Source: Ferrovibrionaceae bacterium
GTDB lineage: Bacteria > Pseudomonadota > Alphaproteobacteria > Ferrovibrionales > Ferrovibrionaceae
Direction of reading: 5' to 3'
Assembly: GCA_965229335.1 (NCBI GenBank)
Contig: OZ245874.1
Coordinates: 5,860,736 to 5,924,735, forward strand
Length of the DNA: 64,000 nt
In this document: positions 7,451-53,713 of the stretch, in pieces
How positions within the stretch are numbered: the first letter of the stretch is position 1
Layout of the letters: the number at the start of each line of letters is the position of its first letter
Notes under the pieces: generated by a model
What the model was told of the DNA's origin: nothing
Seen by the model: the letters and a program-made list of their open reading frames with translations, nothing else
Database searches by the model: none
Made by a program: the position numbers and the translations under genes

Positions 7451-7467
7451 CAGATACCTCCGATAGG

Positions 7468-7498: not shown

Positions 7499-7511
7499 AA
7501 CATAGATATAT

Positions 7512-8414
7512 CTAACTTTGCCGGTCGTCAAGGCCGGCGGCGAGGTGGTCGAGAAACCGTCGGCCGACCGGCTTCAAGGCGCGCGGCGACGGATAGACGG
7601 CATAGAAGGTCATCGGCGGCGGTGACCAGCCGGGCAGCGCCTCGACCAGCCGCCCGCCGGCGAGGTCTTCGGCGACGATATGACGGCTGAGCCGGGCAAG
7701 GCCGAGACCGGCCAAGGCCGCGTCGCGGGCTACCAGCAGGTTGTCGGTGACGAAGCGGGGGCGGATGGCGATTTCGGCCGCGGCCGCGCCAGGTCCCTGC
7801 AATTGCCAGCGCGGTGCATCGCCTTGCTGCCACCAGCCGACCCCGTCGCGGCCGTTGAGCTGGGCCGGCGTGCGCGGCTGCCCGGCCGCGGCGACCCAGG
7901 CCGGCGTCGCCACCAGCGCGAACGGCGCGACCAGCAGGCGGCGGGCGACCAGCGTCGAATCCGCCAGGGTCGACGGTGTCGGGCGGATCATCAGGTCGCA
8001 GCCGGGCGGCATGATCTCCTCGACCCCCGTCGTCACCGTCACGTTGAGCTGGACCAGCGGATGGGCGGCGGCGAATTCGGCCGCCAGCCGGCCGATGATC
8101 AGTTCGGCCAGCACCACCGGACAGGCGATGCGCAGCGGCCCGCTCGGCTCGGCCAGCGCTTCCTGCGCGATCAGCGCGGCGGCCTCGGCCTCGGCCCGGA
8201 TCGCCGCGCCGTGGCGATAGAGGCGCAGGCCCAGTTCGGTCACCGCAAAACGGCGGGCGTCGCGATGGATCAGGGTGACGCCCAGCCTGGCCTCGAGCTC
8301 GGCGACACGCCGGCTCAGCCGCGACTTCGGAATGCCGGTGCGCCGGCTGGCTGCGGTGAAACCGCCGGCCTCGATCACCTGTGCCAGCAGGCTCAGATCG
8401 TCGCTCATCAACAT
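7512..8414 (-). CDS. LysR family transcriptional regulator
   Basis: The track ORF (497 aa) has an implausible Arg/Pro-rich N-terminal extension. The LysR HTH starts at MLMSDDLSLLAQVIEAGGFTAASRRTGIPKSRLSRRVAELEARLG (ATG 8414; alternatives 8408 and 8435). It is divergent from the esterase gene. Confidence 0.85.
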   Translation of the reverse strand: MLMSDDLSLLAQVIEAGGFTAASRRTGIPKSRLSRRVAELEARLGVTLIHRDARRFAVTELGLRLYRHGAAIRAEAEAAALIAQEALAEPSGPLRIACPVVLAELIIGRLAAEFAAAHPLVQLNVTVTTGVEEIMPPGCDLMIRPTPSTLADSTLVARRLLVAPFALVATPAWVAAAGQPRTPAQLNGRDGVGWWQQGDAPRWQLQGPGAAAAEIAIRPRFVTDNLLVARDAALAGLGLARLSRHIVAEDLAGGRLVEALPGWSPPPMTFYAVYPSPRALKPVGRRFLDHLAAGLDDRQS

Positions 8415-30456: not shown

Positions 30457-30921
30457 ATGTCAGCGAACGCGACCGACGATACCGTGCCGGCCGGCTTCAA
30501 GCCGTTCCCGATAGCGGAGGGTTTTGCCGCCCATAATGGCCCGCTCTATATCCGGCGCGATGCCGGGGGCGGCGTGCGCCTGGGTTTCCGGGTGGAACGC
30601 CAGCATCTGAACGCCGGCGGGGTGTGCCATGGCGGCATGCTGATGACGCTGGCCGACATGGCGCTGGGAATTTCCGCGACCGTCGCCGCCGGCGGGCGCA
30701 AGTTCCTGCCGACCGTGACGATGGCGACCGAATTCCTGCGTCCGGCCGAGCTCGGCCAGTGGGTCGAGGCGATCGGCGAGCCGTTGCGCATCACCCGCAA
30801 CCTCGGCTTTTCCGTCTGCCGGGTGATGGCGGGCGACGAACTGGTCCTCCATGCCTCGGGCACGCTGAAGGTGCCGCAGGCCGAATGGGCCCATGACTTC
30901 AACCAGATCCTCGCCGATTGA
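30457..30921 (+). CDS. PaaI-family hotdog-fold thioesterase
   Basis: 154 aa. It has the [18 protein letters not shown] motif. Confidence 0.75.
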
Positions 30922-32732
30922 GCGCCATGACCGAGCTGTCCCAGATCCGCAATTTCTCCATCGTCGCCCATATCGACCACGGCAAGTCGACCCTCGCCGA
31001 CCGCCTGATCGAGGCTTGCGGCGCGCTGGAAAGCCGCGAGATGACCAGCCAGATCCTCGACTCGATGGATATCGAGCGCGAGCGCGGCATCACCATCAAG
31101 GCCCAGACCGTGCGGCTGCGCTATCGCGCCAAGGACGGCAAGGACTACGTGTTCAACCTGATGGACACGCCCGGCCATGTCGACTTCGCCTATGAAGTCT
31201 CGCGCTGCCTTGCCGCCTGCGAAGGCTCGCTGCTGGTGGTCGACGCCTCGCAGGGCGTCGAGGCGCAGACGCTGGCCAACGTCTACCAGGCGATCGAGGC
31301 CAACCACGAGATCGTGCCGGTCCTGAACAAGATCGACCTGCCGGCGGCCGACCCCGAGCGGGTCAAGGCGCAGATCGAGGAGGTGATCGGCCTCGACGCC
31401 TCCGACGCCGTCGAGATCTCGGCCAAGACGGGCCTGGGCATTCCCGACGTGCTGGAGGCGCTGGTCACCCGCCTGCCGCCGCCGAAGCACGGCGACCGCG
31501 ATGCGCCGCTGAAGGCGCTGCTGATCGACAGCTGGTATGACGCCTATCTCGGCGTCGTCGTGCTGTTCCGCATCATCGACGGGGTGATGAAGAAGGGCAT
31601 GAAGGTCCGCTTCATGTCGAACAAGTCTAACTACCTGGTCGAGCGTGTCGGCGTGTTCAACCCCAAGCGCACGATCGTCGACGAGCTCGGCCCCGGCGAG
31701 GTCGGGTTCCTGACCGCCGCGATCAAGCAGGTGGCCGACACCAATGTCGGCGATACCATCACCGACGACCGCAACCCGATCGCCGAGCCGCTGCCCGGTT
31801 TCAAGCCGTCGGTGCCGGTGGTGTTCTGCGGCCTGTTCCCGGTCGACGCCGCCGATTTCAACGTGCTGCGCGAGAGCCTCGCGAAACTGCGCCTGAACGA
31901 TGCGAGCTTCCATTTCGAGACCGAGAGCTCGGCGGCGCTGGGCTTCGGCTTCCGCTGCGGCTTCCTCGGTCTCCTGCATCTGGAGATCATCCAGGAGCGG
32001 CTGGAGCGCGAATTCAACCTCGACCTGATCACCACCGCCCCCTCGGTGGTCTACAAGGTCTACATGACCGACGGGACGATGCAGGAATTGCACAACCCCG
32101 CCGACATGCCCGACGTGATGAAGATCGACCGCATCGAGGAACCCTGGATCAAGGCCCAGATCCTGGTGCCGGACGAGCATCTCGGTTCGATCCTGAAGCT
32201 GTGCGAGGACCGCCGCGGCCGGCAGGTCGAGCTGACCTATCACGGCAGCCGGGCGATGGTGACCTATCGCCTGCCGCTGAACGAGGTGGTGTTCGATTTC
32301 TACGACCGGCTGAAATCGGTCAGCCGCGGCTATGCCTCGTTCGACTACCAGATGGACGGGCACGAGATCGGCGACCTCGTGAAGATGTCGATCATGGTCA
32401 ATGCCGAGCCGGTCGACGCGCTCGCCATGATCGTGCACAAGAGCCGGGCCGAGATGCGCGGCCGCCAGCTCTGCGAGCGGCTGAAGGAGCTGATCCCGCG
32501 GCAGCTGTTCAAGATCGCGATTCAGGCGGCGATCGGCGCCCGCGTCATCGCCCGCGAGACCATCTCGGCGATGCGCAAGGACGTGCTGGCCAAGTGCTAC
32601 GGCGGCGACATCAGCCGCAAGCGCAAGCTGCTCGACAAGCAGAAGGAAGGCAAGAAGCGCATGCGGAACGTCGGCAATGTCGAGATCCCGCAGGAAGCCT
32701 TCATCGCAGCCCTGAAGATGAACGACGACTGA
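30918..32732 (+). CDS. lepA: Elongation factor 4 (translational GTPase LepA)
   Basis: [34 protein letters not shown] and the characteristic LepA C-terminus are present. Confidence 0.95.
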
Positions 32733-33135: not shown

Positions 33136-33223
33136 GGAGGGATGGCCGAGCGGCTTAAGGCGCACGCCTGGAAAGCGTGTTCACCGAAAGGTGTCGAGGG
33201 TTCGAATCCCTCTCCCTCCGCCA
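33136..33223 (+). tRNA. tRNA-Ser (anticodon GGA)
   Basis: Folded by hand. The acceptor GGAGGGA pairs with TCCCTCC, and the anticodon arm is CACGC-CTGGAAA-GCGTG. It has a long variable arm (TCACCGAAAGGTGTC), T arm GAGGG-TTCGAAT-CCCTC, discriminator G and an encoded CCA. Confidence 0.9.
33207..33223 (+). repeat. attL core: TCCCTCTCCCTCCGCCA (3' end of tRNA-Ser)
   Basis: Identical to 41198-41214. The flanking bases differ on both sides. Confidence 0.85.
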
Positions 33224-33313
33224 GCCATAGCCAAGCCCTTGATATCTCATCAAGTTCTTGGAATCCCTGGCTAATTTCTTCTCGTTACTCCATTGGACTG
33301 TTACAGTGGAGAC

Positions 33314-35044
33314 ATGGAGAAGATGCCCGGACATCCCCGTCTGTATCGTCGTGGCGCGGTCTATTGGCACCGCGCCGCCGTACCCGTCGACATTGCCGAT
33401 ACCTACCCGAAAACCGAGGAAACGTTCTCCCTTCGGACCAAGGACCGAAACGAGGCCCTGAAGCTCGTTCGGATCGAGGCGGCGCGGGTGGATCGCCTGT
33501 TCGACGAACACCGCAAGCGGGTGGCGGCGGCGGCGGGGCCGACCGTGGACGAATTGACCGATGCCCAGGTCAAGGCGATCGGCGAGGCGTACTATGCGAT
33601 GCTGCTGCAAGAGGACGATGCACGGCGCCTCAGGGAATTCGAAGGGAAGTCATTTGAGGAGCATTTAGAGGACATCGCGGGCCTATCCGCTGTCGCTCGC
33701 CACGAGTTTGCGCGCGGAGAAATTAGCGACTTCGACGCCGACGAGGCCGAAGATTTCATGGCCTCCGACTGGGTGGGCGTGAAGCTGTCACCAGATAGCC
33801 CGAGCTGGCCCCGCGTCGCCCGCGAGATGAAAGCCGCCCGCATCCGGGCCTATGCGGCCAAACAATCCCGGAGCGACGGCGAACCAGTACCTACCCCTGA
33901 ACCGCCGCCGCCTTTGTCCTCACGCCAGAAGGCGCGCGGGTCAAGCCGCCTGCTGTCCGATGAGGTCAAGGATTGGATGGCCGAGAAGACCCGGACTTCA
34001 TGGGTCCCGAAGACCGAGCATGAACACCGCGTATGGATGGGGCATTTTATCACGATCGCGGGTGACAGGCCGTGGCTGGACTACAACAAGGCCGACGCGC
34101 GGGCCTTCAAGGCCGTCTTGATGCGCCTCCCCGCCAACTGGAACAAGTTCGACGCGCTGGCCCCCCTGGGGATCGCAGAAGCGTCCGACCGAGCCCATGA
34201 GCTTGGCTTACCGCCCATGTCCGAAAAGAACCTGAACAAGCTCCTGGGGTATGTCGGGTCGTTCTGGACCTGGGCGAAGGACAATCACGACGACTGCCCC
34301 GAAAACCCGTTCAGGGGCCTCAAGCTCAAACTCAAGGGCAAGAACGTCCGCGATGAGCGCCACCCGTTCACCCTCGACGAACTGAAGGCGATCTTCCGCG
34401 CACCTATCTTCACAGGCTGTAAATCAGCAACCGAATGGGCAGCGCCGGGCGCTTTTGTACCCCGCTCCGCGGGCATCTTCTGGGTGCCTCTCATAGGCCT
34501 CCTGACCGGCGCGAGGCTCGGCGAAATCATCCAACTCCGAACGTCGGACGTTCGCGCGGATCAGGGCATCACGTATCTGGACCTCAACGACGACGGCGAA
34601 GACAAGCGCCTCAAGACCGCCCACAGCAAGCGGATGGTCCCGATACATGCCGAGCTTGTTGCGGCTGGCTTCCTTGAGCTTGTCGATCAGCGCCGCCGGG
34701 CTGGCCAGGAACGGCTATTCCCTGACCTGGGGATGGGGGCGGACGGGTACTATTCGTCGCCGTTCTCGAAGCATTTCAGCCGTTTCCTGACCCGTGTCGG
34801 GGTCAAGACCCGGAAGAACGCCTTCCACTCGTTCCGGCATTGCTTTGAGGACGCCTGCCGTGACAGCGACATCTCCAAGGAGGTCATGGACGCCCTTCAG
34901 GGGCACGGCGAGGAAGGCATGTCGGGGCGGTACGGGCGTGGGTATGTCCTGAAGAAACTGGCCGAGGCGATGGGGCGCTTGCGATACGACGGGCTCGACT
35001 TATCGCACCTTCACATTCGTCAAGCGGGGGATGAGAGGCGTTGA
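33314..35044 (+). CDS. int: Tyrosine-type site-specific integrase (large, with an N-terminal extension typical of alphaproteobacterial island integrases)
   Basis: The C-terminal catalytic region reads GARLGEIIQLR ... HSFRHCFEDACRD ... LQGHG ... GRYGRGY (R...HxxR...H...Y). Its position next to the tRNA supports the call. Start at ATG 33314 or nearby. Confidence 0.9.
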   Translation: MEKMPGHPRLYRRGAVYWHRAAVPVDIADTYPKTEETFSLRTKDRNEALKLVRIEAARVDRLFDEHRKRVAAAAGPTVDELTDAQVKAIGEAYYAMLLQEDDARRLREFEGKSFEEHLEDIAGLSAVARHEFARGEISDFDADEAEDFMASDWVGVKLSPDSPSWPRVAREMKAARIRAYAAKQSRSDGEPVPTPEPPPPLSSRQKARGSSRLLSDEVKDWMAEKTRTSWVPKTEHEHRVWMGHFITIAGDRPWLDYNKADARAFKAVLMRLPANWNKFDALAPLGIAEASDRAHELGLPPMSEKNLNKLLGYVGSFWTWAKDNHDDCPENPFRGLKLKLKGKNVRDERHPFTLDELKAIFRAPIFTGCKSATEWAAPGAFVPRSAGIFWVPLIGLLTGARLGEIIQLRTSDVRADQGITYLDLNDDGEDKRLKTAHSKRMVPIHAELVAAGFLELVDQRRRAGQERLFPDLGMGADGYYSSPFSKHFSRFLTRVGVKTRKNAFHSFRHCFEDACRDSDISKEVMDALQGHGEEGMSGRYGRGYVLKKLAEAMGRLRYDGLDLSHLHIRQAGDERR

Positions 35045-36379: not shown

Positions 36380-37648
36380 TTAGGTGACCTTCAAGACTGC
36401 GTTGGTCCCGGTGATGGCTCGGTACTTGTCGGAGAGGACCGCCACCGCCCTCTCAAGGTTCGACCTGGGCACCACCAGGGCATCATGAACGGGTAGCGCC
36501 ACCACGCTCTCATCACCGAGCGCCAGCAAGGTAGCAACCATGACCGTCGCCTCCGTCTTCATTGCCTTGAGCCCCGCGCCGGTACCGAAGAGGCTGGCTA
36601 TCGGCTTGTGTCTTTCAGTCAGAAGCTTGGTGACGAGGTCGATGGTCGCATGCCGCGGAAGCAGGGCCTTGGTGCCGCCAGGGAGCCGCCATAGGGGCTT
36701 CGTCGTCGACAGCATCGCGTTGAGGACTTTCTTCAGCCCCTCGCGTCGCCCTTGGAAGCTCGGATCGTCGACCGCATAGGCGTCCTCATCGGCCGGGAAT
36801 TCCAGCCCTGCGCCAGCGTAGACGAACCTGACCGCCGCTGATCGCATGTCGACCTCACCGACCTCCTCGCCGCCGATACGAAGCTTCGACAACCGATCGT
36901 CTCCGCTCATGTTTTGCCAGAAGGCCCCGTAGAGGCGCCCGCCGTGGTCAAAGTCGACGTTGAACACCCGACGCATGGACCGGGTGCCGACATGGGGGCG
37001 GGTGATATCCCGAAGGTCCGCGACGGCCAGCCGGCGGTTGATGGTCTGCATTTCCTCGCGCCAACGGGTCGTGTCTGCGGTCTCCTCATAGTCGACCTCC
37101 GCCCCCGTCTCGCCGTTGACCTTCTCGGCCCGGAGGATGATGGTCTCCCCCTTCTGGCTGTCTGCGAAGTCGTCGGCGGTGAGCCCTTCGCTCGCCAGAA
37201 GCCCAGCCATCGCCGGGCCGGCGCTCATGACCGACTGTCGGCGCTCTTTCCGTGGCCTGTGGATTCCCTGCGGGGCGACAGTCGAAACCAGGAAGCCGCA
37301 CGCCGGGTCACTCAGTAGGTCGACGATGCCCGGGAGCTGAGTATTGAGCGCCGGGGCCTTGTAGCGGTCGCGGCTACCGAGGAAGCCCAAAGCGCGCGGG
37401 TAGGTGACGGCAAGGTCGGGCTCGGTGAGATACACCCGTGCCAATTCCGATACGATCGCTTCGACGGTAGCGCGGAAGGTTGCCTCATCGGCCGCCTTAC
37501 GAGCCCGCTGGCGGGGTTTCACGGATGGCTCGGCGCCGAGGGCGCGGGAAACGATGAAGGCCACCAGCGAGGCCCCAGCGGGCGACGCGGGGCGGTACCA
37601 GCCGGTGAACCAATGGTCACGGTCTTCGGGATCGATAAGGGGGCTCAA
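36380..37648 (-). CDS. Orphan 422-aa protein with family-A (PolA-like) polymerase motifs; candidate minimal polymerase/replicase
   Basis: Hand alignment to Taq/Klenow. GGRLYGAFWQNMS matches TGRLSSSDPNLQNIP, and VGEVDMRSAAVRF matches motif A (VALDYSQIELRV). RREGLKKVLNAML matches motif B (RRAAKTINFGVLY). GTGAGLKAMK...LPVHDALVV matches QGTAADLMK...QVHDELVL (motif C). Both metal-binding Asp are present (D267, D389). Confidence 0.55.
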   Translation of the reverse strand: MSPLIDPEDRDHWFTGWYRPASPAGASLVAFIVSRALGAEPSVKPRQRARKAADEATFRATVEAIVSELARVYLTEPDLAVTYPRALGFLGSRDRYKAPALNTQLPGIVDLLSDPACGFLVSTVAPQGIHRPRKERRQSVMSAGPAMAGLLASEGLTADDFADSQKGETIILRAEKVNGETGAEVDYEETADTTRWREEMQTINRRLAVADLRDITRPHVGTRSMRRVFNVDFDHGGRLYGAFWQNMSGDDRLSKLRIGGEEVGEVDMRSAAVRFVYAGAGLEFPADEDAYAVDDPSFQGRREGLKKVLNAMLSTTKPLWRLPGGTKALLPRHATIDLVTKLLTERHKPIASLFGTGAGLKAMKTEATVMVATLLALGDESVVALPVHDALVVPRSNLERAVAVLSDKYRAITGTNAVLKVT

Positions 37649-38338: not shown

Positions 38339-38896
38339 TCACGCCCTCCCGATGATGCGATAGACCGACGACCGACCAATCCCGAGCCGCTTAGCGATTT
38401 CCGCAACGGGGACCTTCTCGGCATGCAGGGCCTCGACCTCCGCCGCCTTGGCCGTCGCCGTGGGCTTGCGGCCCTTGTACTTCCCCTCGCTCTTGGCCTT
38501 CGCGATGCCCTCACGCTGCCGCTCAAGCATCATCTCCCGCTCGAATTGGGCGATGGAGCCGAGAAGGTTCACCATGAGCTTCCCTGTGGGTGTCTCCGTA
38601 TCGAGGTTCATTGCGAGAACCCGAAGGCTCGCCCCCCTCTCGGCAATCTCGCCGACGATCCGCGACAGGTCGGCCACCGACCGGGCCAAGCGGTCCAGCT
38701 TGGTCACCACCAGCACGTCACCATCCCGGAGATAGTCGAGGGCCGCTTCTAGCTCCGGGCGCTTCCCCTGCGACGAAACCTGTTCGCGGTAGAGCTTCGT
38801 TGCCCCTGCGGCCTTCAGGTCCCGTATCTGGGCCTCAAAGCCCGCTTCCTGTTCCACGGTGCTGGTCCGCGCGTACCCGATCACCATGCCCGTCAT
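38339..38896 (-). CDS. Small serine recombinase (resolvase/invertase family)
   Basis: MVIGYARTSTVEQEAGFEAQIRDL...VVTKLDRLARSV...FEREMMLERQREGIAKAK plus the C-terminal HTH VAEIAKRLGIGRSSVYRII. The catalytic Ser is in YARTST. Start at ATG 38896 or 38887. Confidence 0.9.
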   Translation of the reverse strand: MTGMVIGYARTSTVEQEAGFEAQIRDLKAAGATKLYREQVSSQGKRPELEAALDYLRDGDVLVVTKLDRLARSVADLSRIVGEIAERGASLRVLAMNLDTETPTGKLMVNLLGSIAQFEREMMLERQREGIAKAKSEGKYKGRKPTATAKAAEVEALHAEKVPVAEIAKRLGIGRSSVYRIIGRA

Positions 38897-39950
38897 GTCT
38901 GCCCCCACATTCCCAATGAAATCTTAGACATAGTGGTGAATAATGCTCCAAAATGCAATACCCATTTATTTGGGGCATGATTTGGGGCGTCGGACCAAGG
39001 CCCGCAGGACCAGGGTCTATTGGGAATGGGGAGGCTGGGGATGGTTGGGCGCGCTCGACGCAACCCTGCCCTCAATCCCCCAGGTTGACCCAATGTCTCC
39101 CGATGGACGGCCCGCGCCCCGTGACCAGTCCAGCGCTTCCGCCCGAATGCGCACCGTCCTTCAGACCGCTCCTTGCCCGCGCATGGCTCCCTCGCCGTCA
39201 CGCCCGCGGTCGACCGATCGGGAACCCTCAGAAAATTCAGGCCGGGCGATCGGTACCCCCGGGGTGTGCCGGCGGGTGGGGGTCTTTCAAAAAGACCGCT
39301 AAAGCTCCGCGCGCGCGGTTAATTTTGGGTCAGACCTTCGGCAGTGAGGGCGGCCCCGGAAAAAGCAGAGGTAGCGACGGGGGGATGACTTTCGGCGTAG
39401 ACTTGATTATACTTAGCTGCCCTTAGGCCGGGAGCCCCTGTGGCCGAGAATTACATCTCGCGCAAAAGCAGGCCCCTCCCTCATGGAATATGAAAAAGGA
39501 CGAGGCGATGTTGAACATCGTTCTCCAAGTAGACCTGAACTCAGTTCTGGTTGCGTTGGCGTTTGCTATTAGCTTGAAACGCTAGTCGGGCTGGGGAGGT
39601 GGGTCGCCTGCCTCCCCATCTTACCAGTCCGCCTCCGCGCTACATGCGCCCCATCTCCTCGCGGCACCCATCCGTCCGCGCAAGAGCCCTATGCATTTAC
39701 CTGGAGAAGCGCGACGGCTATATGACCGGTCGCTGGCGTATCGAGGTCAGTCCACCCTACCAGCCCAGGCGCGCGCCGAGCGTGCCCGGACCTACCGTCC
39801 GCAACCTCAGAAACCGGTAGAGGCAGCAAGTGGAAGCGTCGGATTGGCCACGGGAATGCAAGAACTCGTTGTCGAGCCCAAGGAGTTCGTTGGCCTATTC
39901 GGCGACGCCCCAGCCCACTAACCGTCACAGTCCAAAATCAGCAAAACAAG

Positions 39951-40907
39951 CTAGTCATCTTTGTTGACGACGCCACCACAATAATCACACAAAGCATGAT
40001 TATCATAATAGGCATTATTAGGGGTGATTTCGACACCACACCTTATGCAATCCTCAAGAACATAGCCACACCATACGCATCCAACATATTCACCATCCAT
40101 AACATAGGTTCCAAGAGCGCACTCCGGGCAATCTTGAACATGTGGATTACCGCCATCCTTCGCAGCCATGTAATTCTCAACTGCGAAAGGTGTATCAAGA
40201 GAATGAACAAATATGTCCTTGGCGCTATTTTCCTCGCTACAAGAGCGACACCTGAATTCGGCTGACTGAAAATCATCGTTATCTGGGTTGACCTGTGCGA
40301 CTAACCGCGACCCACAATCCACGCAGACCAGATCAATCCCAGAAAGATAATCGACTGGCTCCCATGTGAAATTGCTCATAGTCGCCTTGCACTCGATCAA
40401 CTCTTTCTCAAACAGCAACTTTACTGCTTCGAGTTCCGCCCATGTTTCACCCAGTTCAATTTCTGGATTAAGCTTCATATGTCTGAACAGCAAAACGACA
40501 ACAGGGAATGCCTTAACGATCGCCTCGCGTACTGCAGGTTGCGTGGCTTGAGTATAAGCATGCTCAATGTCATTCCTAACCTCATTTAATGAGGTCAATA
40601 GCTTTCTATCGATTTCAATGCGAAAATCATTCAAGCGCTCGTTTATAGTTTCAAAGTCGAGCGTCTTTTTTCCCTTAGCTTTAATCTCCACCTTGCCGTC
40701 GCCATTCAATACGATCTTAAGATTAGAAGCCAGGATTATTTTTGCACTCTCATTGGGAGTAGCTCGAACCAACGTTTCTTTGGCGAGCAACAGAAGCCCA
40801 GAGTAGAAATTCCGTACAGCCGACAGCGGGCGCTTAGGATCATTTGATTTGTAATCCTCAAGCCCGAGCTGAATTGACTGGATAGCGTTGTCGAACAACG
40901 AGTTCAT
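39951..40907 (-). CDS. AT-rich orphan: predicted HEPN-like helical domain (Rx4H motif) fused to three C-terminal CxxC...CxxC zinc ribbons
   Basis: The N-terminal ~150 aa are all-helical with LNEVRNDIEHAY (R126-x4-H131 in track numbering). The C-terminus has CVDCGS..CRSCS, CPECAL..CVWCGY and CIRCGV..CDYCGG. The start is uncertain (ATG 40907, 40919 or 40952). Composition is far more AT-rich than all surrounding DNA. Confidence 0.6.
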   Translation of the reverse strand: MNSLFDNAIQSIQLGLEDYKSNDPKRPLSAVRNFYSGLLLLAKETLVRATPNESAKIILASNLKIVLNGDGKVEIKAKGKKTLDFETINERLNDFRIEIDRKLLTSLNEVRNDIEHAYTQATQPAVREAIVKAFPVVVLLFRHMKLNPEIELGETWAELEAVKLLFEKELIECKATMSNFTWEPVDYLSGIDLVCVDCGSRLVAQVNPDNDDFQSAEFRCRSCSEENSAKDIFVHSLDTPFAVENYMAAKDGGNPHVQDCPECALGTYVMDGEYVGCVWCGYVLEDCIRCGVEITPNNAYYDNHALCDYCGGVVNKDD

Positions 40908-41197
40908 GATGTCACCCATTATTATGGTGCAACGCAAAAACTCTGGACGCATTCAAGCGAGGCACCGCCGAAGCGGCTACTTCTCCATTTTGCACACCGC
41001 AACCGCCACCGCGCAAGCGGCTGGATATCCAGATTGTCGAACCGCCGAAAAGAGGGAGCCGCCACCTTCCGTCTACTCCGGATTAATGTTTGCCTCCAAC
41101 CCGCTTGCGGGCTGTTACAGTGAGATGCTACATCTAAGGCTCGGACAACGAGCGTAGAATGGCGGAAATCCTAGGGTTTTGACTCCTCTCACGAGGT

Positions 41198-41214
41198 TCC
41201 CTCTCCCTCCGCCA
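41198..41214 (+). repeat. attR core: TCCCTCTCCCTCCGCCA (17-bp copy of the tRNA-Ser 3' end)
   Basis: Read directly. Only the last 17 nt of the tRNA are duplicated, so this is not a tRNA gene. Confidence 0.85.
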
Positions 41215-41255
41215 CGTCCACTCTGGACACTGGCCGCTTCCGTCCCCGACCCCCT

Positions 41256-42149
41256 TTACCGTTTGAAGCAGTTCTCCCGATGCCAGGCCAGGAAATCGGG
41301 GTGAGGCCGTTCGGCTGGCCGCAACGGGGCAAAGGCACGCCCGCTTCTGTTGATGAAGCCGCGCACCCCGTCGGGATCGTTCACCTGGCGAGAGATCAGG
41401 ATTTCCAACTCGTTGCTCAGGCTGATCAGGCCACGGTCGAACATCCAGTGCGCGGTGCCTGAAAGCGCGATGCCATTCGAAACCGCGTCGGGACCGTCAT
41501 GCTCGACCGGGCGAATATGCGCGGCATCGACCTCGGCGCGTCCGCCGCCATTGATCAGTTTAAGGCCGCTGATCGCGCAGCGTTCGTCATAGGCGCGGAG
41601 CACGACACGCCGGAAATTGCGGTCACGCACCGCACGGGTGGCAATGAAACTGACGCGGTCGCGCTGTTGGACAAAGGGAGCGCGCTCGTCGTTCAACCCG
41701 AGCGGCGGCAGGGCTTCGCCGAGCCGCGGCAGCAACGGTTCGTGATCGTCGAGGCCCAGCCCGACGATGCGATTGAAGTCCTCGGCCGAAATCGGTCGCA
41801 CCGCCGCCTGGGCGCGGCCGGAAAGCCGGCCGGTGTCATTCAGCAAGCCGCGTTCGATGACACCATCGGGGCCGGTAAAGGGGACGGGATTGGCAAAATC
41901 GAGATAGCTGCCCGGCTCGATATGCGCGAGATACATGCCGGAGACCTTGGGATCCGGACTGATCCGGCTGACCCGCGCCACCGCAAAATAGCCGCGCGTC
42001 CGCGCGACCTTGGCCGGCTCGAGGTACAGGATCCAGTCGCCTTCGCTGGCCCGGGCACGGCCAAGATACTGGCTGGGGAACTGATAGCGCGCGGCGGGGC
42101 TGTCGTCGTAGATCGAATCGGCGCGGTGGATGAAGACCCCGTATCCCAT
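41256..42149 (-). CDS. HNH endonuclease (HNH_2/COG3440-like) with an N-terminal PUA/EVE-like domain; candidate modification-dependent (type IV) restriction enzyme
   Basis: The C-terminus YDERCAISGLKLINGGGRAEVDAAHIRPVEHDGPDAVSNGIALSGTAHWMFDRGLISL is an H-N-H core. The N-terminal ~150 aa (ARYQFPSQYLGRA...GDWILYLEP...GYFAVARVSRI) resemble PUA-like reader domains. Assigned from memory. Confidence 0.65.
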   Translation of the reverse strand: MGYGVFIHRADSIYDDSPAARYQFPSQYLGRARASEGDWILYLEPAKVARTRGYFAVARVSRISPDPKVSGMYLAHIEPGSYLDFANPVPFTGPDGVIERGLLNDTGRLSGRAQAAVRPISAEDFNRIVGLGLDDHEPLLPRLGEALPPLGLNDERAPFVQQRDRVSFIATRAVRDRNFRRVVLRAYDERCAISGLKLINGGGRAEVDAAHIRPVEHDGPDAVSNGIALSGTAHWMFDRGLISLSNELEILISRQVNDPDGVRGFINRSGRAFAPLRPAERPHPDFLAWHRENCFKR

Positions 42150-42383
42150 TCAACCTGTATAGCGCGGCAGGCGCGCCGTCTCACGCCCGAAAATGCCGCG
42201 CCCCGCCCGATGGCCGGTATGAAGCCGGTCGCGCATGGCCAGATGCTGTGCTCGATCGCCACCGCCATTGGGCGGGCCATGCGTTCGCCTATGCCGCAAT
42301 GCGCCTGCATGATCCGGTCGGCGAAATCGGCGGGATGTCCGTCACGAAGCCGCCCATGAAGGCACGCTACCCGTCAAGCCGGG

Positions 42384-42416
42384 AAAAAAAAGGGGGGACG
42401 CCGTCAGGCGCCCCCC
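42384..42416 (-). terminator. Rho-independent terminator downstream of the secreted-protein gene
   Basis: The minus strand reads GGGGGGCGCC-TGAC-GGCGTCCCCCC followed by T8. That is a 10-bp stem with one G-U pair and a U-tract. Confidence 0.75.
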
Positions 42417-42439
42417 GAAGAAAGACCGGCAGCAGGTCG

Positions 42440-43399
42440 TCAGTTGCCGCGCAGCCGGGCGGCAAGCGCCGTCACGGCGTCGGTCAAGGCCGGGTCGGCG
42501 GGAACGGCGTCGGCCCCGGCCGAGGCCAGCGCATCGGCGGCAAGCTTGGCCGTCTCGACCGCACCGGGCGCGGCATTCGCCACGATGTCGGCGGCACTGC
42601 CTGCCCCGAACAGATTGGCTTCGCCGGCGATCGCCGCCCGAACCCCCTGGACGCGATAGCGCGTGCCGCTGCCCGGCGTCAGCCAGTACTGGCCGCGGAA
42701 TTCGTTGGTCGGCATCGAGATCAGATAGGTCTCGGTTATCGTCGATCCGACATAGATCAGCAGACACTGACCCGCGAAACTGCCGGAAGTGTAGCATTCG
42801 CCGGCATAACCGCTCGGCGCGCAGGAGACGAAACCGGTACCGCCCGAATTGACCGGCGAGCCGACCGTCGAGCACCGGACGATGCCGCCATAGCTGCTGG
42901 AATAGGTCGGCGAGCCGATCGAATAGGCGAACGCCCATTGGCCCAGCAACGGATTCTGGGAATCGGAGAACGTATAGCGGGACAGCGGGATCATGGCCGA
43001 TCCGCCCGAACCGAAAGGCCCGCTGGAGCCAAGCGACAGGGTCGCCCTGCTGGCGGTGCTGAAGGTCAGCGTTGCCGTGCCGGCCGAGGTACCTGCCGGC
43101 GATGTCATGGCACAGCCCAGACACTGGCCGCCGCTGTACTTGGTGAGGTTTGCCGAGAACGTCGGATAGCCGGACCCGTTCAACGAGTATCCGCCCGTGG
43201 CGTAGTACCAGACCGGCGCCAGGCTGCCGGTCTCATAGACGTAGATGATCAGCGTCATCTGCGTCCCCTGTTGCTCGATCGAATAGCCGCGCCCGCCCTC
43301 GCTCGGGTTGAAATAGATACCGCTTTCGATCAGCGCGGCACTGGCGGTGCCAATCCACGCACACAAAAAGCCCGCCAGAATTCCCAATAATACACGCAT
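42440..43399 (-). CDS. Secreted Cys-containing Gly/Ser/Tyr-rich protein of unknown function
   Basis: The signal peptide is MRVLLGILAGFLCAWIGTASA. It has 8 Cys in the mature part (GQCLGCAM, VRCS, VSCAP, GECY, GQCLL) and an Ala-rich C-terminal tail. No family recognised. Confidence 0.6.
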   Translation of the reverse strand: MRVLLGILAGFLCAWIGTASAALIESGIYFNPSEGGRGYSIEQQGTQMTLIIYVYETGSLAPVWYYATGGYSLNGSGYPTFSANLTKYSGGQCLGCAMTSPAGTSAGTATLTFSTASRATLSLGSSGPFGSGGSAMIPLSRYTFSDSQNPLLGQWAFAYSIGSPTYSSSYGGIVRCSTVGSPVNSGGTGFVSCAPSGYAGECYTSGSFAGQCLLIYVGSTITETYLISMPTNEFRGQYWLTPGSGTRYRVQGVRAAIAGEANLFGAGSAADIVANAAPGAVETAKLAADALASAGADAVPADPALTDAVTALAARLRGN

Positions 43400-43693
43400 T
43401 GTAATCCTCCCTCTTTTCCGATTCTCAGCATAACAGTGTGCTTTAGGGGAGTCAGGCCATGATGATGGTTAATATGAGAGCACTATGTTGAGTTTATATT
43501 TCTGTATCGATGAAATATCGGCACAGTTGTATTTTAATAGGTGCATTTTTATGGATAGAAGCGCGGCAATCCGCCAAAAATCTGGCAACCGAACGCGACG
43601 CCGCCAGCAGCCGGCGGCGATGGAAGCCTCGTCCTGAGGTTGCACGGTGCTGTGGCCTGGCTATCGCTGCGACGGCCGGGCCGGCTGGTGCGC

Positions 43694-43885
43694 CTATTTC
43701 TGCGACTTGTCCGTCGACGCCGGTGGCGACCACTTGCCGGCTTCCATGTCGGCCAGCGCGCCAAGGAGCACGCGGCGCAGGAAATCGCCTTGCCGGGTGT
43801 CGCCGCGCTGCGCGTCGATCCGCGCCTTGGTACCCTCGGGGGCGCGGATGAAGACGTCTTCCGTGTAGAGCTTCGGCTTGGGCAT
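43694..43885 (-). CDS. Ribbon-helix-helix (Arc/CopG-like) small DNA-binding protein
   Basis: Internal ATG 43885. MPKPKLYTEDVFIRAPEGTKARIDAQRGDTRQGDFLRRVLLGALADMEAG fits a beta-strand/helix/helix RHH pattern. Weak assignment. Confidence 0.45.
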   Translation of the reverse strand: MPKPKLYTEDVFIRAPEGTKARIDAQRGDTRQGDFLRRVLLGALADMEAGKWSPPASTDKSQK

Positions 43886-44117
43886 TGCCCTTCGTTTAGC
43901 CTGCGACTCACCGCTAGCGCAATCGGTCATATCGTCCGTCCCCCGCGTCAATGCGGCATTAATCGATAGCGCAATCGCTTATTGACGTGATTAAGCGCTA
44001 GCACTTATAGTGTCGACCCGAGCTTTGCAGCCAGAGGCCCTATCCCATGCGCAGCACCGCAGGGCTGATGCCCACGGCATGACCGGACCCGACCCGTCAT
44101 GCAGGCCGCACCGGCGG

Positions 44118-44651
44118 TCAATCAAGCGCCGCGGCGGCGGGCCGCGCCCCCTTGCGGCGCGAGGCCGCCCGGTCGGCGCCATAGCCGAGCAGGTCGTTCG
44201 GCGACAGGTCGAGCGCACCGCACAGCGCGTGCAACATGGCCAGGCCCGGCTCGTTCCGGCCGCGGGCATAATGGCCATAACGCGTCGTGCTGATGCCCAG
44301 CCGGCCAGCCAATTCGGTATCGGTCAGTCCCTGGCGCAGGCTGAGCGCGCGCAGACGCCGACCGAAGCTTTCGGCATCGAGCGCGATGTCGTCGGCCGTG
44401 CTGTCGCGCATCGCGGCCTGGATCATCTCGCCAGCCTCCATCCCCGCCGCGGCGGCCAGCGCCTCGAGCGTGCCCGACGGAATTTTGCCACCATTGAAGG
44501 CCGCCGAGACGACGCCATAAGGCAAGCCCGCGAGTTTTGCCCAATTTGCCCGCGTCTTAAGCAGAGACTTCTTTTCCGTAAGCACCTTTCGCAGCGCGAA
44601 AGCAAAAATGGCTCCGCCGGCGTCCCGGCGGATCTGCCTGCTTTTTGTCAT
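44118..44651 (-). CDS. XRE (Cro/CI) family transcriptional regulator, apparently with two HTH-like halves
   Basis: ATG 44651 is preceded by GGGGGAG. The C-terminal half FGRRLRALSLRQGLTDTELAGRLGISTTRYGHYARGRNEPGLAMLHALCGALDLSPNDLLGY is a classic XRE HTH. The N-terminal half (ALRKVLTEKKSLLKTRANWAKLAGLPYGVVSAAFNG) looks like a second, degenerate copy. Confidence 0.75.
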   Translation of the reverse strand: MTKSRQIRRDAGGAIFAFALRKVLTEKKSLLKTRANWAKLAGLPYGVVSAAFNGGKIPSGTLEALAAAAGMEAGEMIQAAMRDSTADDIALDAESFGRRLRALSLRQGLTDTELAGRLGISTTRYGHYARGRNEPGLAMLHALCGALDLSPNDLLGYGADRAASRRKGARPAAAALD

Positions 44652-44890
44652 CACAACAAACTCCCCCACGACCACTAAAAAATCTACTTCAAGGTATTTC
44701 AATACGCAAATATTATTATGCATGACGTTTTTTGGTTGTGCCAAACATTCATTAAGCAATGGTCTTGAATAATTTCACTACTTATTAGGGTGATTTGTTG
44801 ATGACAAAATGCGCATTGATGCTCGCCATACGATTGCGGAAGTGCGCGGGCTGGTAGCAGGCGCAGGATTGCGGACGGACGACTGGCGAC

Positions 44891-45880
44891 TTAGTCGAAG
44901 ATGCGGTCCGCCGTCTGCAGGGTCAGCGGAATCTCCACCCCCAGGGCTCGGGCGGTGGCGAGGTTGATCCAGAGCTCGACCACGGTGGGTTGCTCGACCG
45001 GCAGGTCGGCCGGCGTGGCGCCGTCGAGGATGCGGCGCACGAAATACCCGGCCCGTCCCAGCAGCTTGCCCGGCACCGGGCCGAAGCCGAGCAGGCCGCC
45101 GATCTCGGCGGCCGGCGGATAGGGTGCGAAAAACGGCAGGCGGCGCGAGAGGGCGAAGGGCGCGATCCGGTCGCAGAGGTCCAGGCTGGCTGCGTCCGCC
45201 AGCAGGTGGAGGGCGTCGAGATCCGCAGCGGCCAGGGTCGCGAGCGCGGCATCAAGGTCGCCGGGCAGGCGGACCGCTGCCGGGACCACGGCGATACCGT
45301 GGCCGGTCGCGCCGGCCTGCAAGCCCGCCAGCATGCCCTGGTTGCTCGGGTTCGCCGGGTTGAGCACGACGCCGATCCGCCGCGCCCGCGGCACGATCTG
45401 GCGCTGGAAATCGAGCATCTTCGGCGTCATGTCCTCGATCTGGGTGGCGATGCCGGTGGTCTGGCCACCCGGCCTTGCCAATGTCGCAATCAGCCCGGAT
45501 TCGACGGGATTGTTGATCCCCAGCATCACCACCGGGCGGGTGGGCAATGCGGCCTGGGCCGCGCGCACCCCGGCGATCGTGTTGGCCAGGATCAGCGCGG
45601 CGCCGGACGCTGCCAGACCTTGCGCCAGCGGTCCGAGCCGCTGGTAGTCACCCCCGGCATAGTGGACGTCGAGCTGATAGTCGCGGCCGTCGCGCAGGCC
45701 GGCGTCGTGCAGGCCCTGCCCCACGATCGCGGTCGTCGCATCGGTGAAATAGGCCCCCTTGCTGCCCGCGAGCAGCAGGCCGAGCCGCGCCGGCGCGGCC
45801 CCGGCGGCCCGGGGACAGGCCGTGGCGGCGATGGCCGCACCGAGCCGCGCCAGGAGGATCCTGCGTCCGATTCCCGTCAT
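44891..45880 (-). CDS. ABC transporter substrate-binding protein (PF04392-like ABC_sub_bind family)
   Basis: 329 aa with a signal peptide carrying RR (MTGIGRRILLARLGAAIAATA). The general pattern resembles this family. From memory. Confidence 0.6.
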   Translation of the reverse strand: MTGIGRRILLARLGAAIAATACPRAAGAAPARLGLLLAGSKGAYFTDATTAIVGQGLHDAGLRDGRDYQLDVHYAGGDYQRLGPLAQGLAASGAALILANTIAGVRAAQAALPTRPVVMLGINNPVESGLIATLARPGGQTTGIATQIEDMTPKMLDFQRQIVPRARRIGVVLNPANPSNQGMLAGLQAGATGHGIAVVPAAVRLPGDLDAALATLAAADLDALHLLADAASLDLCDRIAPFALSRRLPFFAPYPPAAEIGGLLGFGPVPGKLLGRAGYFVRRILDGATPADLPVEQPTVVELWINLATARALGVEIPLTLQTADRIFD

Positions 45881-49856: not shown

Positions 49857-50954
49857 TCAGCCGGCGCGGACCTGGCGGAGAAAGCGGTCGACCTCGCCGC
49901 GCAGCTTTTCGGCCAGGGTCGACAGTTCGCCCGAGGCCACCGCCACCTGGTCGGCGGCATGGCCGGCATCGTCGGCCGCCTGCTTGACCGCCGACACGCT
50001 CGCCGACGCTTCCTGGGTGCCGGCCGAGGCCTGCTCGACATTGCGGGCGATTTCCTGCGTCGCCGCCCCCTGCTCCTCCACCGCCGAGGCGATCGAGGCG
50101 TTGATCTCGTTGATCCGCCCCACCGTCCCGCCGATGTTGCGGATCGCCTCCACCGCCTGGCGCGTCGCGTCCTGCACGCCCGAGATCTGCTGGCCGATCT
50201 CGTCGGTCGCCTTCGCCGTCTGGTTCGCCAGGTTCTTCACTTCCGAGGCCACCACCGCAAATCCCTTGCCGGCATCGCCCGCCCGCGCCGCCTCGATCGT
50301 CGCGTTCAGCGCCAGCAGGTTGGTCTGCCCGGCGATCGTGTTGATCAGGCTGACCACCTCGCCGATCTTGTCGGCCGCCGCCGCCAGGCCCTGGACGATC
50401 GCGTCCGTCGCCTGCGCCTCTTCCACCGCCCCCTGCGCGATCCGGCTGGCCGTCGCCACCTGGTTGGAAATCTCGTTGATCGACGCGGCCAGTTCCTCCG
50501 ACGCGCTCGCCACCGTCTGCACGTTGGTCGCCGCCTGCTCGGTCGCCGCCGCCGCGCTCAGCGATTGCTGCGTCGTCGTCGCGGCAATCCCGGTCATCGA
50601 CCGCGCGGTCGCGTTCATCTCGGTCGCGCCGGCCGCCACCGCCTCGACCACGCCGCCCACCGCACCCTCGAAATCGGCCGCCAGCTTCAGCAGCGCCTCG
50701 CGCCGCAGCCGCTCGCCCTCGACCCGCGCCCGCTCCTGCTCGGCCTGGCGCTCGGCCGCCTGGCGCCGCTCGGCCTCCTCGGCCTCGCGCTGGCGCTGGG
50801 CCTCGGCCTGGCGGGCCGCCTCGTCGCGCGCCCGCTTCTCCTCGGCCGCCGCCCGCTCGCGCGCCTCCTCGTCGCGCTGGCGCTGCTCCTCGCGGATCCG
50901 CGCATCCTCGGCCTCGGCCGCCAGCCGCTTGCCCTCGATCCCGTTCTGCTTGAA
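49857..50954 (-). repeat. ~1.1-kb near-identical repeat (3' portion of MCP copy A)
   Basis: Aligned by eye to 51827-52924 at an offset of 1970 bp. Only a handful of substitutions were seen. Identity drops sharply upstream of the repeat. Confidence 0.85.
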
Positions 50955-51719
50955 CACCTCGACGCTGCGCGCCATCAGGCCCACTTCGTCCTGGCGCTGA
51001 CGCCCGCTCACCTCGGCCGAATAGTCGCCGCGCGCCAGCACCTCCATCACCTTGGCCAAGCCTTGCAGCGGCCCGGCAATGCCGCGCTGGGCAATCCAGA
51101 ACGCCACCGCACCGACGATCAGGACGCCCAGCCCCAGGATCGTGAACAGCATGTTGCGGGTAGACACGTAGCCGGCGGTCAGATCGTCTGCTGTCTGCTT
51201 GAGTTCGACCAGCAACTGATCCAGCTCGCGCGCCACGTCCTGGCGCAAGGCCTCGATCCGCGGGTTCAACTCCTTGTCGATGATTCGCGTCGCCTCGTCG
51301 GTCGCTTCCTGCCCATCGATCTGGGCCAGTGCCTGCACGTCGCGCGTCGCCTCGAAGATGCGGGTATATTCCGCCTTGAACCGGTCGATTGCCTGGGCGT
51401 GATGCGGCAGGCCCTGGCGGGCCAGCTCGGCGCGCCGGTTGAACTCGACCTGTGCTGCCTGCAGGTTGCGCAGCGTGACCTTGACGTCAGCCTGATTGTT
51501 CTGCGCGGTCATCTGGTAGAGCAATGCGGCAGTCTGGGTGATCGTCACGTTGACGCGGGCCAGCCAGACCAGACCCGGGGCGTCACGGGTCAGGATGACG
51601 GTATTCCGATCGTCGGCCTGCCCCATCCGATGGATCGACAACCAAGTCGTCCCGATGCCGAGCAAGGCCAGCATCGCGATGACGATAACAATCTTGTAGA
51701 GGATCTTGAGATTTTGCAC
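49857..51719 (-). CDS. Methyl-accepting chemotaxis protein (copy A)
   Basis: 620 aa. The layout is TM, periplasmic 4-helix-bundle-like sensor, TM, HAMP, Glu/Arg/Ala-rich linker, then the MA signalling domain ([37 protein letters not shown]). Confidence 0.9.
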
Positions 51720-51826: not shown

Positions 51827-52924
51827 TCAGCCGGCGCGGACCTGGCGAAGGAAGCGGTCGACCTCGCCGCGCAGCTTCTCGGCCATCGTCGACAGTTCGC
51901 CCGAGGCCGCCGCCACCTGGTCGGCGGCATGGCCGGCATCGTCGGCCGCCTGCTTGACCGCCGACACGCTCGCCGACGCCTCCTGGGTGCCGGCCGAGGC
52001 CTGCTCGACATTGCGGGCGATTTCCTGCGTCGCCGCCCCCTGCTCCTCCACCGCCGAGGCGATCGAGGCATTGATCTCGTTGATCCGCCCCACCGTCCCG
52101 CCGATGTTGCGGATCGCCTCCACCGCCTGGCGCGTCGCGTCCTGCACGCCCGAGATCTGCTGGCCGATCTCGTCGGTCGCCTTCGCCGTCTGGTTCGCCA
52201 GGTTCTTCACTTCCGACGCCACGACGGCGAAGCCCTTGCCGGCATCGCCCGCCCGCGCCGCCTCGATCGTCGCGTTCAGCGCCAGCAGGTTGGTCTGCCC
52301 GGCGATCGTGTTGATCAGGCTGACCACCTCGCCGATCTTGTCGGCCGCCGCCGCCAGACCCTGGACGATCGCGTCCGTCGCCTGCGCCTCTTCCACCGCC
52401 CCCTGCGCGATCCGGCTGGCCGTCGCCACCTGGTTGGAAATCTCGTTGATCGACGCGGCCAGTTCCTCCGACGCGCTCGCCACCGTCTGCACGTTGGTCG
52501 CCGCCTGCTCGGTCGCCGCCGCCGCGCTCAGCGATTGCTGCGTCGTCGTCGCGGCAATCCCGGTCATCGACCGCGCGGTCGCGTTCATCTCGGTCGCGCC
52601 GGCCGCCACCGCCTCGACTACACCGCCCACCGCACCCTCGAAATCGGCCGCCAGCTTCAGCAGCGCCTCGCGCCGCAGCCGTTCGCCCTCGACCCGCGCC
52701 CGCTCCTGCTCGGCCTGGCGCTCGGCCGCCTGGCGCCGCTCGGCCTCCTCGGCCTCGCGCTGGCGCTGGGCCTCGGCCTGGCGCGCCGCCTCGTCGCGCG
52801 CCCGCTTCTCCTCGGCCGCCGCCCGCTCACGCGCCTCCTCGTCGCGCTGGCGCTGCTCCTCGCGGATCCGCGCATCCTCGGCCTCGGCCGCCAGCCGCTT
52901 GCCCTCGATCCCGTTCTGCTTGAA
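51827..52924 (-). repeat. ~1.1-kb near-identical repeat (3' portion of MCP copy B)
   Basis: Partner of 49857-50954. Confidence 0.85.
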
Positions 52925-53713
52925 AACCTCGACCGCGCGCGCCATCAGGCCGACCTCGTCCTGACGCTGCTGGCCGCTCACCTCCGCCGAATAGTCGCCG
53001 CGGGCCAGCACCTCCATCACCCCGGCCAGGCCGCGCAGCGGCGCGGCAATGCCGCGCTGGGCGATCAGCATGGCAACGCCCGCGACGATCACGACGCCCA
53101 GGCCAAGGATCAGCAACAGGCTGTTGCGGGTCGACTGGTAGGTGGCGGTCAGACCGTCAGACGTCACCTTCAGGGCCTCGACTTGGCGGTCGACCTCGGT
53201 AGTTATTTCGCGGCGCAACGCCTCGAAGGCCGGACCGAGCGTCTTGTCCACGATCAGTGTGGCACGGTTATTCGCTTCTGTCGTGTTCTCCACTGCCAGC
53301 GCCTGGGCCTCGCGCGACGCCTCAATGAGCCGCGCATAGTCCGCCTTGATGCGACTGATCTCCGCGCTCCGTTGTGGCAGCAGTCGGCCCGCTTCGGCAA
53401 TACGGGTATCAAAGTCGCGAATCGTTGCGCGCAACGCCTCCTGCGTCGCCTTGATGTCGCTTGCATCGTTCTCCGCGATCATCTGGTAGAGAAGCCCAGC
53501 CGTGCGGTTGACTGTCGCATTGGCCCGCGCCATCCATACCAGTCCCGGTGCATCGCGTGTCAGCACCGCCGAGTTGCGGTCGTCGGCCTGGCCCATGCGA
53601 TAGATCGACAGCCCGGTCGTCGCGATGCCGAGCAGGGCGAGCGCCGCGATCACCAGCGCGATCTTGTAGAGGATCCGGATATTCTGCAAGGCCAACCCCC
53701 CGTTCGAAACCAC
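51827..53713 (-). CDS. Methyl-accepting chemotaxis protein (copy B, tandem paralog)
   Basis: 628 aa with the same architecture. The C-terminal 365 aa are almost identical to copy A, while the sensor domain has diverged. Confidence 0.9.

Follow-up and report, generated by a model that had tools for sequence, protein, structure and literature searches.

A predicted HEPN and triple zinc-ribbon protein of the PDC-S64 family at the end of a tRNA-Ser island in a Ferrovibrionaceae bacterium

HEPN domains with an intact Rx4-6H motif are metal-independent endoribonucleases for which both the histidine and the arginine are needed (PMC3710099), and HEPN enzymes usually form a composite active site through dimerisation (PMC13017515). 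The family EC042_2821/DUF3644 has been classed as HEPN, and its fusion to zinc-ribbon (ZnR) domains was recorded in 2013 (PMC3710099). Here we describe a gene for a protein of this kind, in which a predicted N-terminal HEPN domain is followed by three zinc ribbons, from a Ferrovibrionaceae bacterium (Alphaproteobacteria). The gene lies in a stretch of 64,000 nt (assembly GCA_965229335.1, contig OZ245874.1, forward-strand positions 5,860,736-5,924,735), which is called the window below. By sequence comparison it is a fairly divergent addition to an already catalogued candidate family, PDC-S64 of the PADLOC database.

HEC-08, a protein of E. coli ECOR52 (WP_150698383.1), protects E. coli, and this protection is lost in the mutant H128A (10.1101/2024.01.29.577857). 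In RAZR (PD-T7-4) variability is highest in the zinc domain, which sets the phage specificity, and ring-shaped phage proteins assemble the active RNase (PMC13017515). Ishtar1 and Ishtar2 are monogenic systems with an N-terminal HEPN domain (DUF4145 or DUF3644) and a C-terminal domain, and they clear the plasmid RP4 from A. baumannii (10.64898/2026.07.06.735840). Payne et al. derived the 'phage defence candidates' (PDC) from genes lying within BREX, DISARM and type I restriction-modification (R-M) systems, and these candidates were added to PADLOC (10.1101/2024.01.29.577857). It was thus already known that the family is catalogued as PDC-S64, that the architecture has existed on record since 2013, and that a distant relative, HEC-08, is experimentally validated. 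New here are the link between PDC-S64 and HEC-08, a corrected start codon, exact island boundaries and a fast-evolving zinc-ribbon half.

The PADLOC model PDLC05058 (PDC-S64) matches the protein over its full length with an E-value of 2.6e-40 and 137 bits, from residue 15 to 325 of the open reading frame (ORF) and from position 6 to 300 of the 305 in the profile. A second PDC-S64 model, PDLC05059, matches at an E-value of 1.4e-8, and PADLOC-DB also gives a weak Csx1 match over the motif. In length, architecture and its occurrence as a single gene the protein equals PDC-S64; it differs in that the copy in the window stands at the end of a tRNA-Ser island and that its closest relative is 78% identical.

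The initial annotation of the window had described an orphan gene whose architecture was not a named system. Neither description holds. A word-indexed search found 291 homologues, the best at 78% identity, and an exhaustive HMMER scan found 839 representatives of clusters at 50% identity with E<=0.001, including 198 with E<=1e-30. HEPN plus zinc ribbons was listed in 2013, defence by HEC-08 followed in 2024, and the family itself is PDC-S64. The suggestion of a defence candidate in the same annotation has gained from the checks proposed with it: the PADLOC run returned the match given above, defence genes occur among the close neighbours of homologues (see below), and the relatives, which sit on plasmids, in prophages and in islands, are mobile and in many cases have known defence systems beside them.

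General domain collections say less about the protein. Pfam gives DZR at a sub-threshold E-value of 0.002, DUF3644 at 0.18 and nothing significant; across an alignment of 132 diverse family members with identities down to 28% (alignment A2), DZR matches 51 and DUF3644 is reached at E<=0.01 by four, with a best E-value of 7.9e-5. No match for the protein was found in NCBIfam or PHROGs. Ten longer family variants were searched for extra domains, and none was recognisable except one DUF7683.

The experimentally validated HEC-08 was compared with the family using the sequence in Table S2 of the preprint 10.1101/2024.01.29.577857. HEC-08 matches the PDC-S64 model PDLC05059 at 3.3e-8, and a profile of the family matches the single HEC-08 sequence at an E-value of 7e-5 with both motifs in register. 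When the 132 members were aligned by hhalign with 62 relatives of HEC-08, the probability was 95.2% and the E-value 2.8e-8 over 282 columns (15-327 against 25-361). Nearly the whole of both proteins is covered; RNDIEH of the window protein pairs with RNRVVH of HEC-08, and ribbons pair with ribbons. These profile alignments indicate that the PDC-S64 family is homologous to HEC-08 almost from end to end, although distantly.

Both are single-gene systems in which a DUF3644-type HEPN domain with an Rx4H motif is followed by C-terminal Cys4 ribbons and an acidic tail, and H116 of the window protein aligns with H128, the motif histidine that HEC-08 requires for defence. The differences are considerable. 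Identity in the profile-profile alignment is about 19%, and HEC-08 has eight invariant cysteine pairs, corresponding to four ribbons, against six pairs and three ribbons in the present family. HEC-08 carries E56-x3-K60 in helix 2, where the window protein has L-x3-K, and it comes from enterobacteria, where it lies within Hachiman; the PDC-S64 family is mostly alphaproteobacterial. The proteins grouped as EC042_2821/DUF3644 (Anantharaman et al. 2013) resemble the window protein in the conserved Rx4-6H and the ZnR fusions, and they occur in R-M operons; the window protein, however, reaches DUF3644 only at the E-value of 0.18 and has neither the winged helix-turn-helix nor the restriction endonuclease fusion.

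Residues are numbered below in the product of 318 amino acids, so that R126 and H131 of the initial annotation become R111 and H116. The annotation had placed an Rx4H signature at nt 40560-40577, and these nucleotides do encode RNDIEH. In alignment A2 the arginine and histidine are present in 132 of 132 sequences, the asparagine in 128 and the glutamate in 131. The residues invariant in this alignment are D18, R26, R32, G37, L40, K43, R111, H116 and nine cysteines.

The HEPN layout comprises an insert between helices 2 and 3, an Rx4-6H motif that ends helix 3, and a polar residue after the arginine (PMC3710099). Two AlphaFold2 (AF2) models agree in the order of elements, that of the full protein with a predicted local distance difference test (pLDDT) of 88 and a predicted template modelling score (pTM) of 0.78, and that of residues 1-182 with pLDDT 88 and pTM 0.83. 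The elements assigned by DSSP are helix 1 (4-20), helix 2 (27-49), an insert (50-100), helix 3 (101-117), helix 4 (123-143) and an extra long helix (154-175). Both models place the insert and the motif as in a HEPN four-helix up-down bundle, with residues 111-116 at the C-terminal end of predicted helix 3, and the motif has a polar residue after the arginine (R-N-x-x-E-H). The insert holds a predicted beta-hairpin (63-77) and a short helix; the N-terminal domain is therefore helical as first annotated, but not all-helical. The acidic residue of E-x3-[KR] in helix 2 is missing, as L39 stands four positions before the invariant K43, and D18 in helix 1 is invariant instead. E-x3-[KR] is described as merely 'typical' of the HEPN superfamily (PMC3710099).

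Structure comparison with Foldseek gave its highest probabilities to HEPN proteins, namely 1wty (0.92, target TM 0.65) and 8xdj (0.84), though all with E-values of at least 0.3; 1ylm, 7ae6, 8xeh and the Csm6 structure 5yjc are further HEPN matches in the list at E-values of 0.3 or more. No match at E<=0.001 was obtained for the full-length and N-domain models against PDB, or for the full-length model against BFVD. Of the checks suggested at the outset, the profile comparison leads to the HEPN domain of HEC-08, and the Foldseek search gave no significant match. The predicted fold is consistent with HEPN without being decisive, and structure alone cannot prove HEPN. The HEPN-type N-domain first proposed is supported by the invariant motif, its position in helix 3 and the profile homology to DUF3644/HEC-08, and the assignment rests mainly on motif and profile homology.

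The three CxxC…CxxC zinc ribbons are present where they had been annotated (Table 1). The C-terminal half that contains them is the faster-evolving one. Its mean pairwise identity is 29%, against 38% for the HEPN half, and over 2,000 pairs the N-terminal value is the higher in 95%; the entropy per column is 2.9 bits versus 2.1 bits, and the nonsynonymous divergence (dN) from the closest relative is 0.19 versus 0.09. RAZR and PDC-S64 are alike in that the zinc half diverges most.

The closest analogue in mechanism is RAZR (Zhang et al., Nature 2026), one protein with a Cys4 zinc ribbon and a HEPN RNase, in which trigger-driven oligomerisation is followed by non-specific cleavage of single-stranded RNA and abortive infection. 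It is unlike the window protein in having its zinc finger at the N-terminus (the reverse order), a HEPN domain of the DUF4145 rather than the DUF3644 type, and one zinc domain instead of three. The PADLOC model for PD-T7-4 gave no match to the window protein at E<=1, and DUF4145 likewise gave none.

We consider it probable that the gene encodes a stand-alone PDC-S64 immune effector, an infection-activated HEPN RNase with the zinc ribbons as its sensor, carried as island cargo. As in other HEPN enzymes, a predicted HEPN dimer or oligomer would build a composite, metal-independent RNase site. Since there is no conserved partner gene, control would have to be intrinsic: in the uninfected cell the protein would be held inactive without an antitoxin, either by autoinhibition from the zinc ribbons or because its oligomeric state is unproductive. 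The enzyme would be turned on when the zinc-ribbon half, the faster-evolving one, binds a component of a phage or plasmid, and RNA cleavage would then halt translation and abort the infection. By analogy with RAZR, we propose that the three ribbons sense the invader component and activate the HEPN RNase, with translation arrest as the outcome.

If this is true, the gene adds one more compact single-protein RNase immune sensor, on a minimal integrative island in a GC-rich proteobacterium. The value is practical and not conceptual, as no new class of system is opened. Remote homology over the full length ties the untested candidate PDC-S64 to the validated HEC-08, R111 and H116 are named for mutation as the predicted catalytic residues, and the zinc-ribbon half is marked as the likely specificity module.

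The contexts of the family were taken from 73 genomic loci, mostly of Alphaproteobacteria, with some from Gammaproteobacteria, bdellovibrio-like bacteria and planctomycetes. A conserved partner gene was sought in 47 of the loci and none was found, the largest neighbour cluster being present in 5 of the 47; the family behaves as a single-gene system. The G+C content of the gene minus that of its flanks has a median of -5.6 points across the family, with extremes of -25 and -29. Homologues were found on 15 IMG/VR contigs and on 13 plasmid records, 12 of them conjugative or mobilisable; none was found in cultured phage genomes. Linkage to tRNA genes was considered as a family trait and rejected, as the 10 of 47 loci that show it are close to the background rate.

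Neighbours of the family often come from Gabija, DISARM, Septu or restriction systems. A scan of the two genes on either side at 37 loci (144 proteins, E<=1e-10) matched GajA 3-4 times, DrmMI and type IIG R-M three times each, and GajB, the type I restriction endonuclease, IetS and PtuA twice each, with E-values down to 0. As a control, 111 genes seven or more positions distant at these loci were scanned; besides two other PDCs, they yielded for the most part one or two type I methylases or specificity subunits. This suggests a local association of the family with defence genes; the control is small and non-independent and the comparison carries no statistics. Examples of the contexts are a locus with type I R-M, one with a TIR protein, M78/DUF4411 and a large serine recombinase, one with GmrSD_C and TniB, and one at a prophage end followed by an AAA_13 ATPase.

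The loci of a Rhodospirillales metagenome-assembled genome (L002) and of Luteimonas (L005) share the same two upstream neighbours, of 676 and 639-669 amino acids. These are probably the GajA/GajB matches of the neighbour scan, and if they are, Gabija may have been transferred together with the PDC-S64 gene.

A non-immune role was also weighed, as an addiction or toxin module or as a domesticated RNA-processing or regulatory protein; this would make the ribbons nucleic-acid binders and the HEPN domain the processing enzyme for a specific RNA of the cell or the island. HEPN domains are indeed found in toxin-antitoxin pairs and RNA-processing enzymes as well (PMC3710099), and several homologues stand amid housekeeping genes. 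The toxins of HEPN-MNT pairs (such as 8xdj, 8xeh, 7ae6 and 1wty) are the best structural matches of the N-domain (target TM 0.5-0.65, E-values not significant) and have Rx4H, but they need an adjacent MNT antitoxin and are without zinc ribbons. No MNT antitoxin ORF stands beside the gene, and no conserved antitoxin or MNT-like neighbour was found in the 47 loci. Against such a role also stand the patchy, mobile distribution, with a G+C content usually below that of the host (the median of -5.6 points), the frequency of known defence systems as immediate neighbours, and the nomination of the family through members that lie within BREX, DISARM or type I R-M. We regard this explanation as quite unlikely.

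The mobile contexts allow another reading, in which the target of the protein would be conjugative plasmids or rival mobile elements, with plasmid loss as in Ishtar, or the protein would serve its own island or plasmid in the competition between elements. Ishtar (ist1/ist2) is like PDC-S64 in being monogenic, with an N-terminal HEPN, a beta-rich C-terminal domain and a patchy, mobile distribution, and unlike it in targeting plasmid RP4 with limited toxicity; this comparison was made by description. The clearance of RP4 by monogenic HEPN proteins, the 12 conjugative or mobilisable plasmids among the 13 with a homologue, and the position of the gene as terminal cargo of an integrative island all speak for it. 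However, PADLOC lists no PDC-S64 in the strains from which Ishtar came, the ist2 primer does not occur in the PDC-S64 locus of A. baumannii (L104), and HEC-08, the closest tested relative, was scored against phages. The strain listings and the primer also speak, indirectly, against PDC-S64 and Ishtar being the same system. A role directed at plasmids or rival elements therefore seems unlikely to us.

The A. baumannii locus itself (L104, positions 3998-4954, NZ_CP104448.1) holds an unannotated family member of 318 amino acids with RNDIEH and three zinc ribbons. The record NZ_CP104448.1 has 4.09 Mb and is a plasmid according to PLSDB, but is evidently a chromosome. On the Ralstonia solanacearum plasmid CP076121.1 a homologue (L103, positions 7220-7990) is directly followed by genes of the H-NS and HU families, which are of interest given the AT-richness of the family and possible xenogeneic silencing.

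Several results weigh against an infection-activated immune effector. Foldseek against PDB gave best E-values of 0.3-0.7, none significant, with FAT, talin and designed four-helix bundles interleaved with the HEPN proteins, and a search by sequence for relatives of solved structure, with the protein, a full-length profile and an N-domain profile, returned nothing meaningful. The HEC-08 model PDLC04162 does not match the window protein at E<=1 (HEC-08 itself scores 1.1e-173), and the DUF3644 match amounts to 11.8 bits at ORF residues 77-146, below the gathering threshold of 27.6 bits. A literature search found no paper that names PDC-S64 and no experiment on the gene or on any member. The gene in the window is neither inside nor beside a recognised multi-gene defence system, several homologues stand alone among housekeeping genes, and the neighbour control has the weaknesses already given. 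A scan for promoters and terminators upstream of the gene gave counts no higher than in shuffled sequences and no convincing promoter. In the window the gene is flanked by a serine recombinase and attR, and embedding in BREX, DISARM or type I R-M is absent, a property that applies to the founder members of the PDC only. With these points considered, a defence role is plausible from the sequence relationships.

An alternative within the same function is that PDC-S64 forms a mechanistically distinct HEPN branch. Here the three-ribbon array would recognise a structure of a phage or plasmid and bring the HEPN domains together as an active RNase without a partner, the trigger and RNA target would be unlike those of HEC-08 and RAZR, and the AT-richness would be part of the control, for example by xenogeneic silencing until infection. 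This is possible but in our judgement rather doubtful.

The ORF at 39951..40952 on the minus strand (333 amino acids) was confirmed in the window, but the true start is most likely the ATG at 40907, which is M16 of the ORF and gives a product of 318 amino acids. We place it there because the homologues begin at M16, the Shine-Dalgarno-like GGGTGA precedes this ATG, and an independent gene call agrees. All homologue N-termini fall at M16, and the lengths are typically 316-318 amino acids. The independent call is that of a draft contig (GCA_052437655.1, JBQVOW010000181.1), which is 100% identical to 40721-41330 of the window and starts its gene at the same ATG. This contig ends inside the AT-rich gene at codon 62, so that its assembly break falls within the low-GC stretch, and the first 62 codons are unchanged. 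An exact look-up of the full protein in protein collections gave no record, because the draft contig stops at codon 62.

In two 500-nt segments over the gene the G+C content is 0.454 and 0.462. Elsewhere it is 0.58-0.77, with 0.53 in the next lowest segment, and the stretch with the gene is the sole part of the window below 0.5. For the gene as a whole the G+C content is 44.9%, against 67.1% for the window and 62.4% for the remaining island. The gene is indeed the most AT-rich stretch, as had been noticed, although at about 45% G+C and not about 40%; its composition and its place in the island support a foreign origin. Comparison with the closest relative gives a dN of 0.135 at saturated synonymous sites; from this we take the gene to be under strong purifying selection and, given also its many homologues, to be real.

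The extreme mismatch in composition (45% versus 67% G+C), together with the lack of any predicted promoter-like site upstream, could also mean a silent or decaying foreign gene, with an intact ORF that is non-functional in the present host. The ORF is full-length, however, with all family-invariant residues intact, the ratio of nonsynonymous to synonymous divergence (dN/dS) from the closest relative is far below 1, and the 100% identical draft assembly keeps the first 62 codons unchanged. We find this explanation highly improbable.

The gene is the terminal cargo, at the attR end, of an 8.0-kb integrative island at tRNA-Ser. The limits follow from the last 17 nt of tRNA-Ser, which recur exactly once, at 41198-41214; this attR is the sole other copy of the tRNA end in the window even when three mismatches are allowed. 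The features are listed in Table 1.

Table 1. Coordinates in the window of the PDC-S64 gene, its protein features, the tRNA-Ser island and the flanking genes
Feature	Position	Strand	Remarks
HEPN + triple zinc-ribbon gene (PDC-S64 family)	39951..40907	-	318 aa; stop codon 39951-39953; PADLOC PDC-S64 E 2.6e-40
15-codon in-frame extension upstream of gene, probably untranslated	40908..40952	-	no homologue aligns; query coverage 95% from residue 16
N-terminal HEPN-like domain, residues 1-178	40374..40907	-	AF2 pLDDT 88; hhalign to HEC-08 family; HEPN topology
R111-N-D-I-E-H116, predicted Rx4H catalytic signature	40560..40577	-	conserved in alignment A2; aligned to RNRVVH (H128) of HEC-08
Zinc ribbon 1, C195-x2-C198 … C220-x2-C223	40239..40325	-	C195, C220, C223 invariant; C198 nearly; sub-threshold Pfam DZR
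Zinc ribbon 2, C260-x2-C263 … C277-x2-C280	40068..40130	-	four Cys invariant in 132 sequences
Zinc ribbon 3, C287-x2-C290 … C307-x2-C310	39978..40049	-	C287, C290 invariant; C307 nearly (alignment A2), C310 nearly (alignment A1)
lepA	30918-32732		precedes tRNA-Ser in the window
tRNA-Ser(GGA)	33136..33223	+	ARAGORN; last 17 nt (33207-33223) = attL core
Tyrosine integrase, DUF6538 + Phage_integrase	33293..35044	+	Pfam; phrog_1 integrase 1.2e-27
422-aa island ORF, function unassigned	36380..37648	-	phrog_4756 (phage family, function unknown) 5e-24; no Pfam or PADLOC match
Small serine recombinase (resolvase/invertase), within island	38339..38908	-	Pfam Resolvase 5e-41 + HTH_7
attR, exact 17-nt repeat of tRNA-Ser 3' end (TCCCTCTCCCTCCGCCA)	41198..41214	+	290 nt upstream of gene start
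HNH endonuclease gene	41256-42149	-	42 nt beyond attR; Pfam HNH_2 5e-10

The HNH endonuclease gene was considered as a partner of the PDC-S64 gene and rejected: at 42 nt past attR it is not part of the island, and it does not recur beside homologues. Only its C-terminal half matches the NCBIfam entry 'phosphorothioated DNA-binding restriction endonuclease', below the cut-off. Beyond it follow about 3.5 kb (41215-44900 overall) of lowish G+C content with an ORF of 319 amino acids without family match and an XRE-type helix-turn-helix gene. An older island at the same tRNA may have left the region 41215-44900 behind.

Further along, two tandem paralogous ORFs of about 620 amino acids at 49857-51719 and 51827-53713, both on the minus strand, are 84% identical and virtually identical over their last ~380 residues, which suggests a recent duplication or gene conversion. 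From their sequences they look like methyl-accepting chemotaxis proteins, and they coincide with a strong GC/AT skew in the composition profile.

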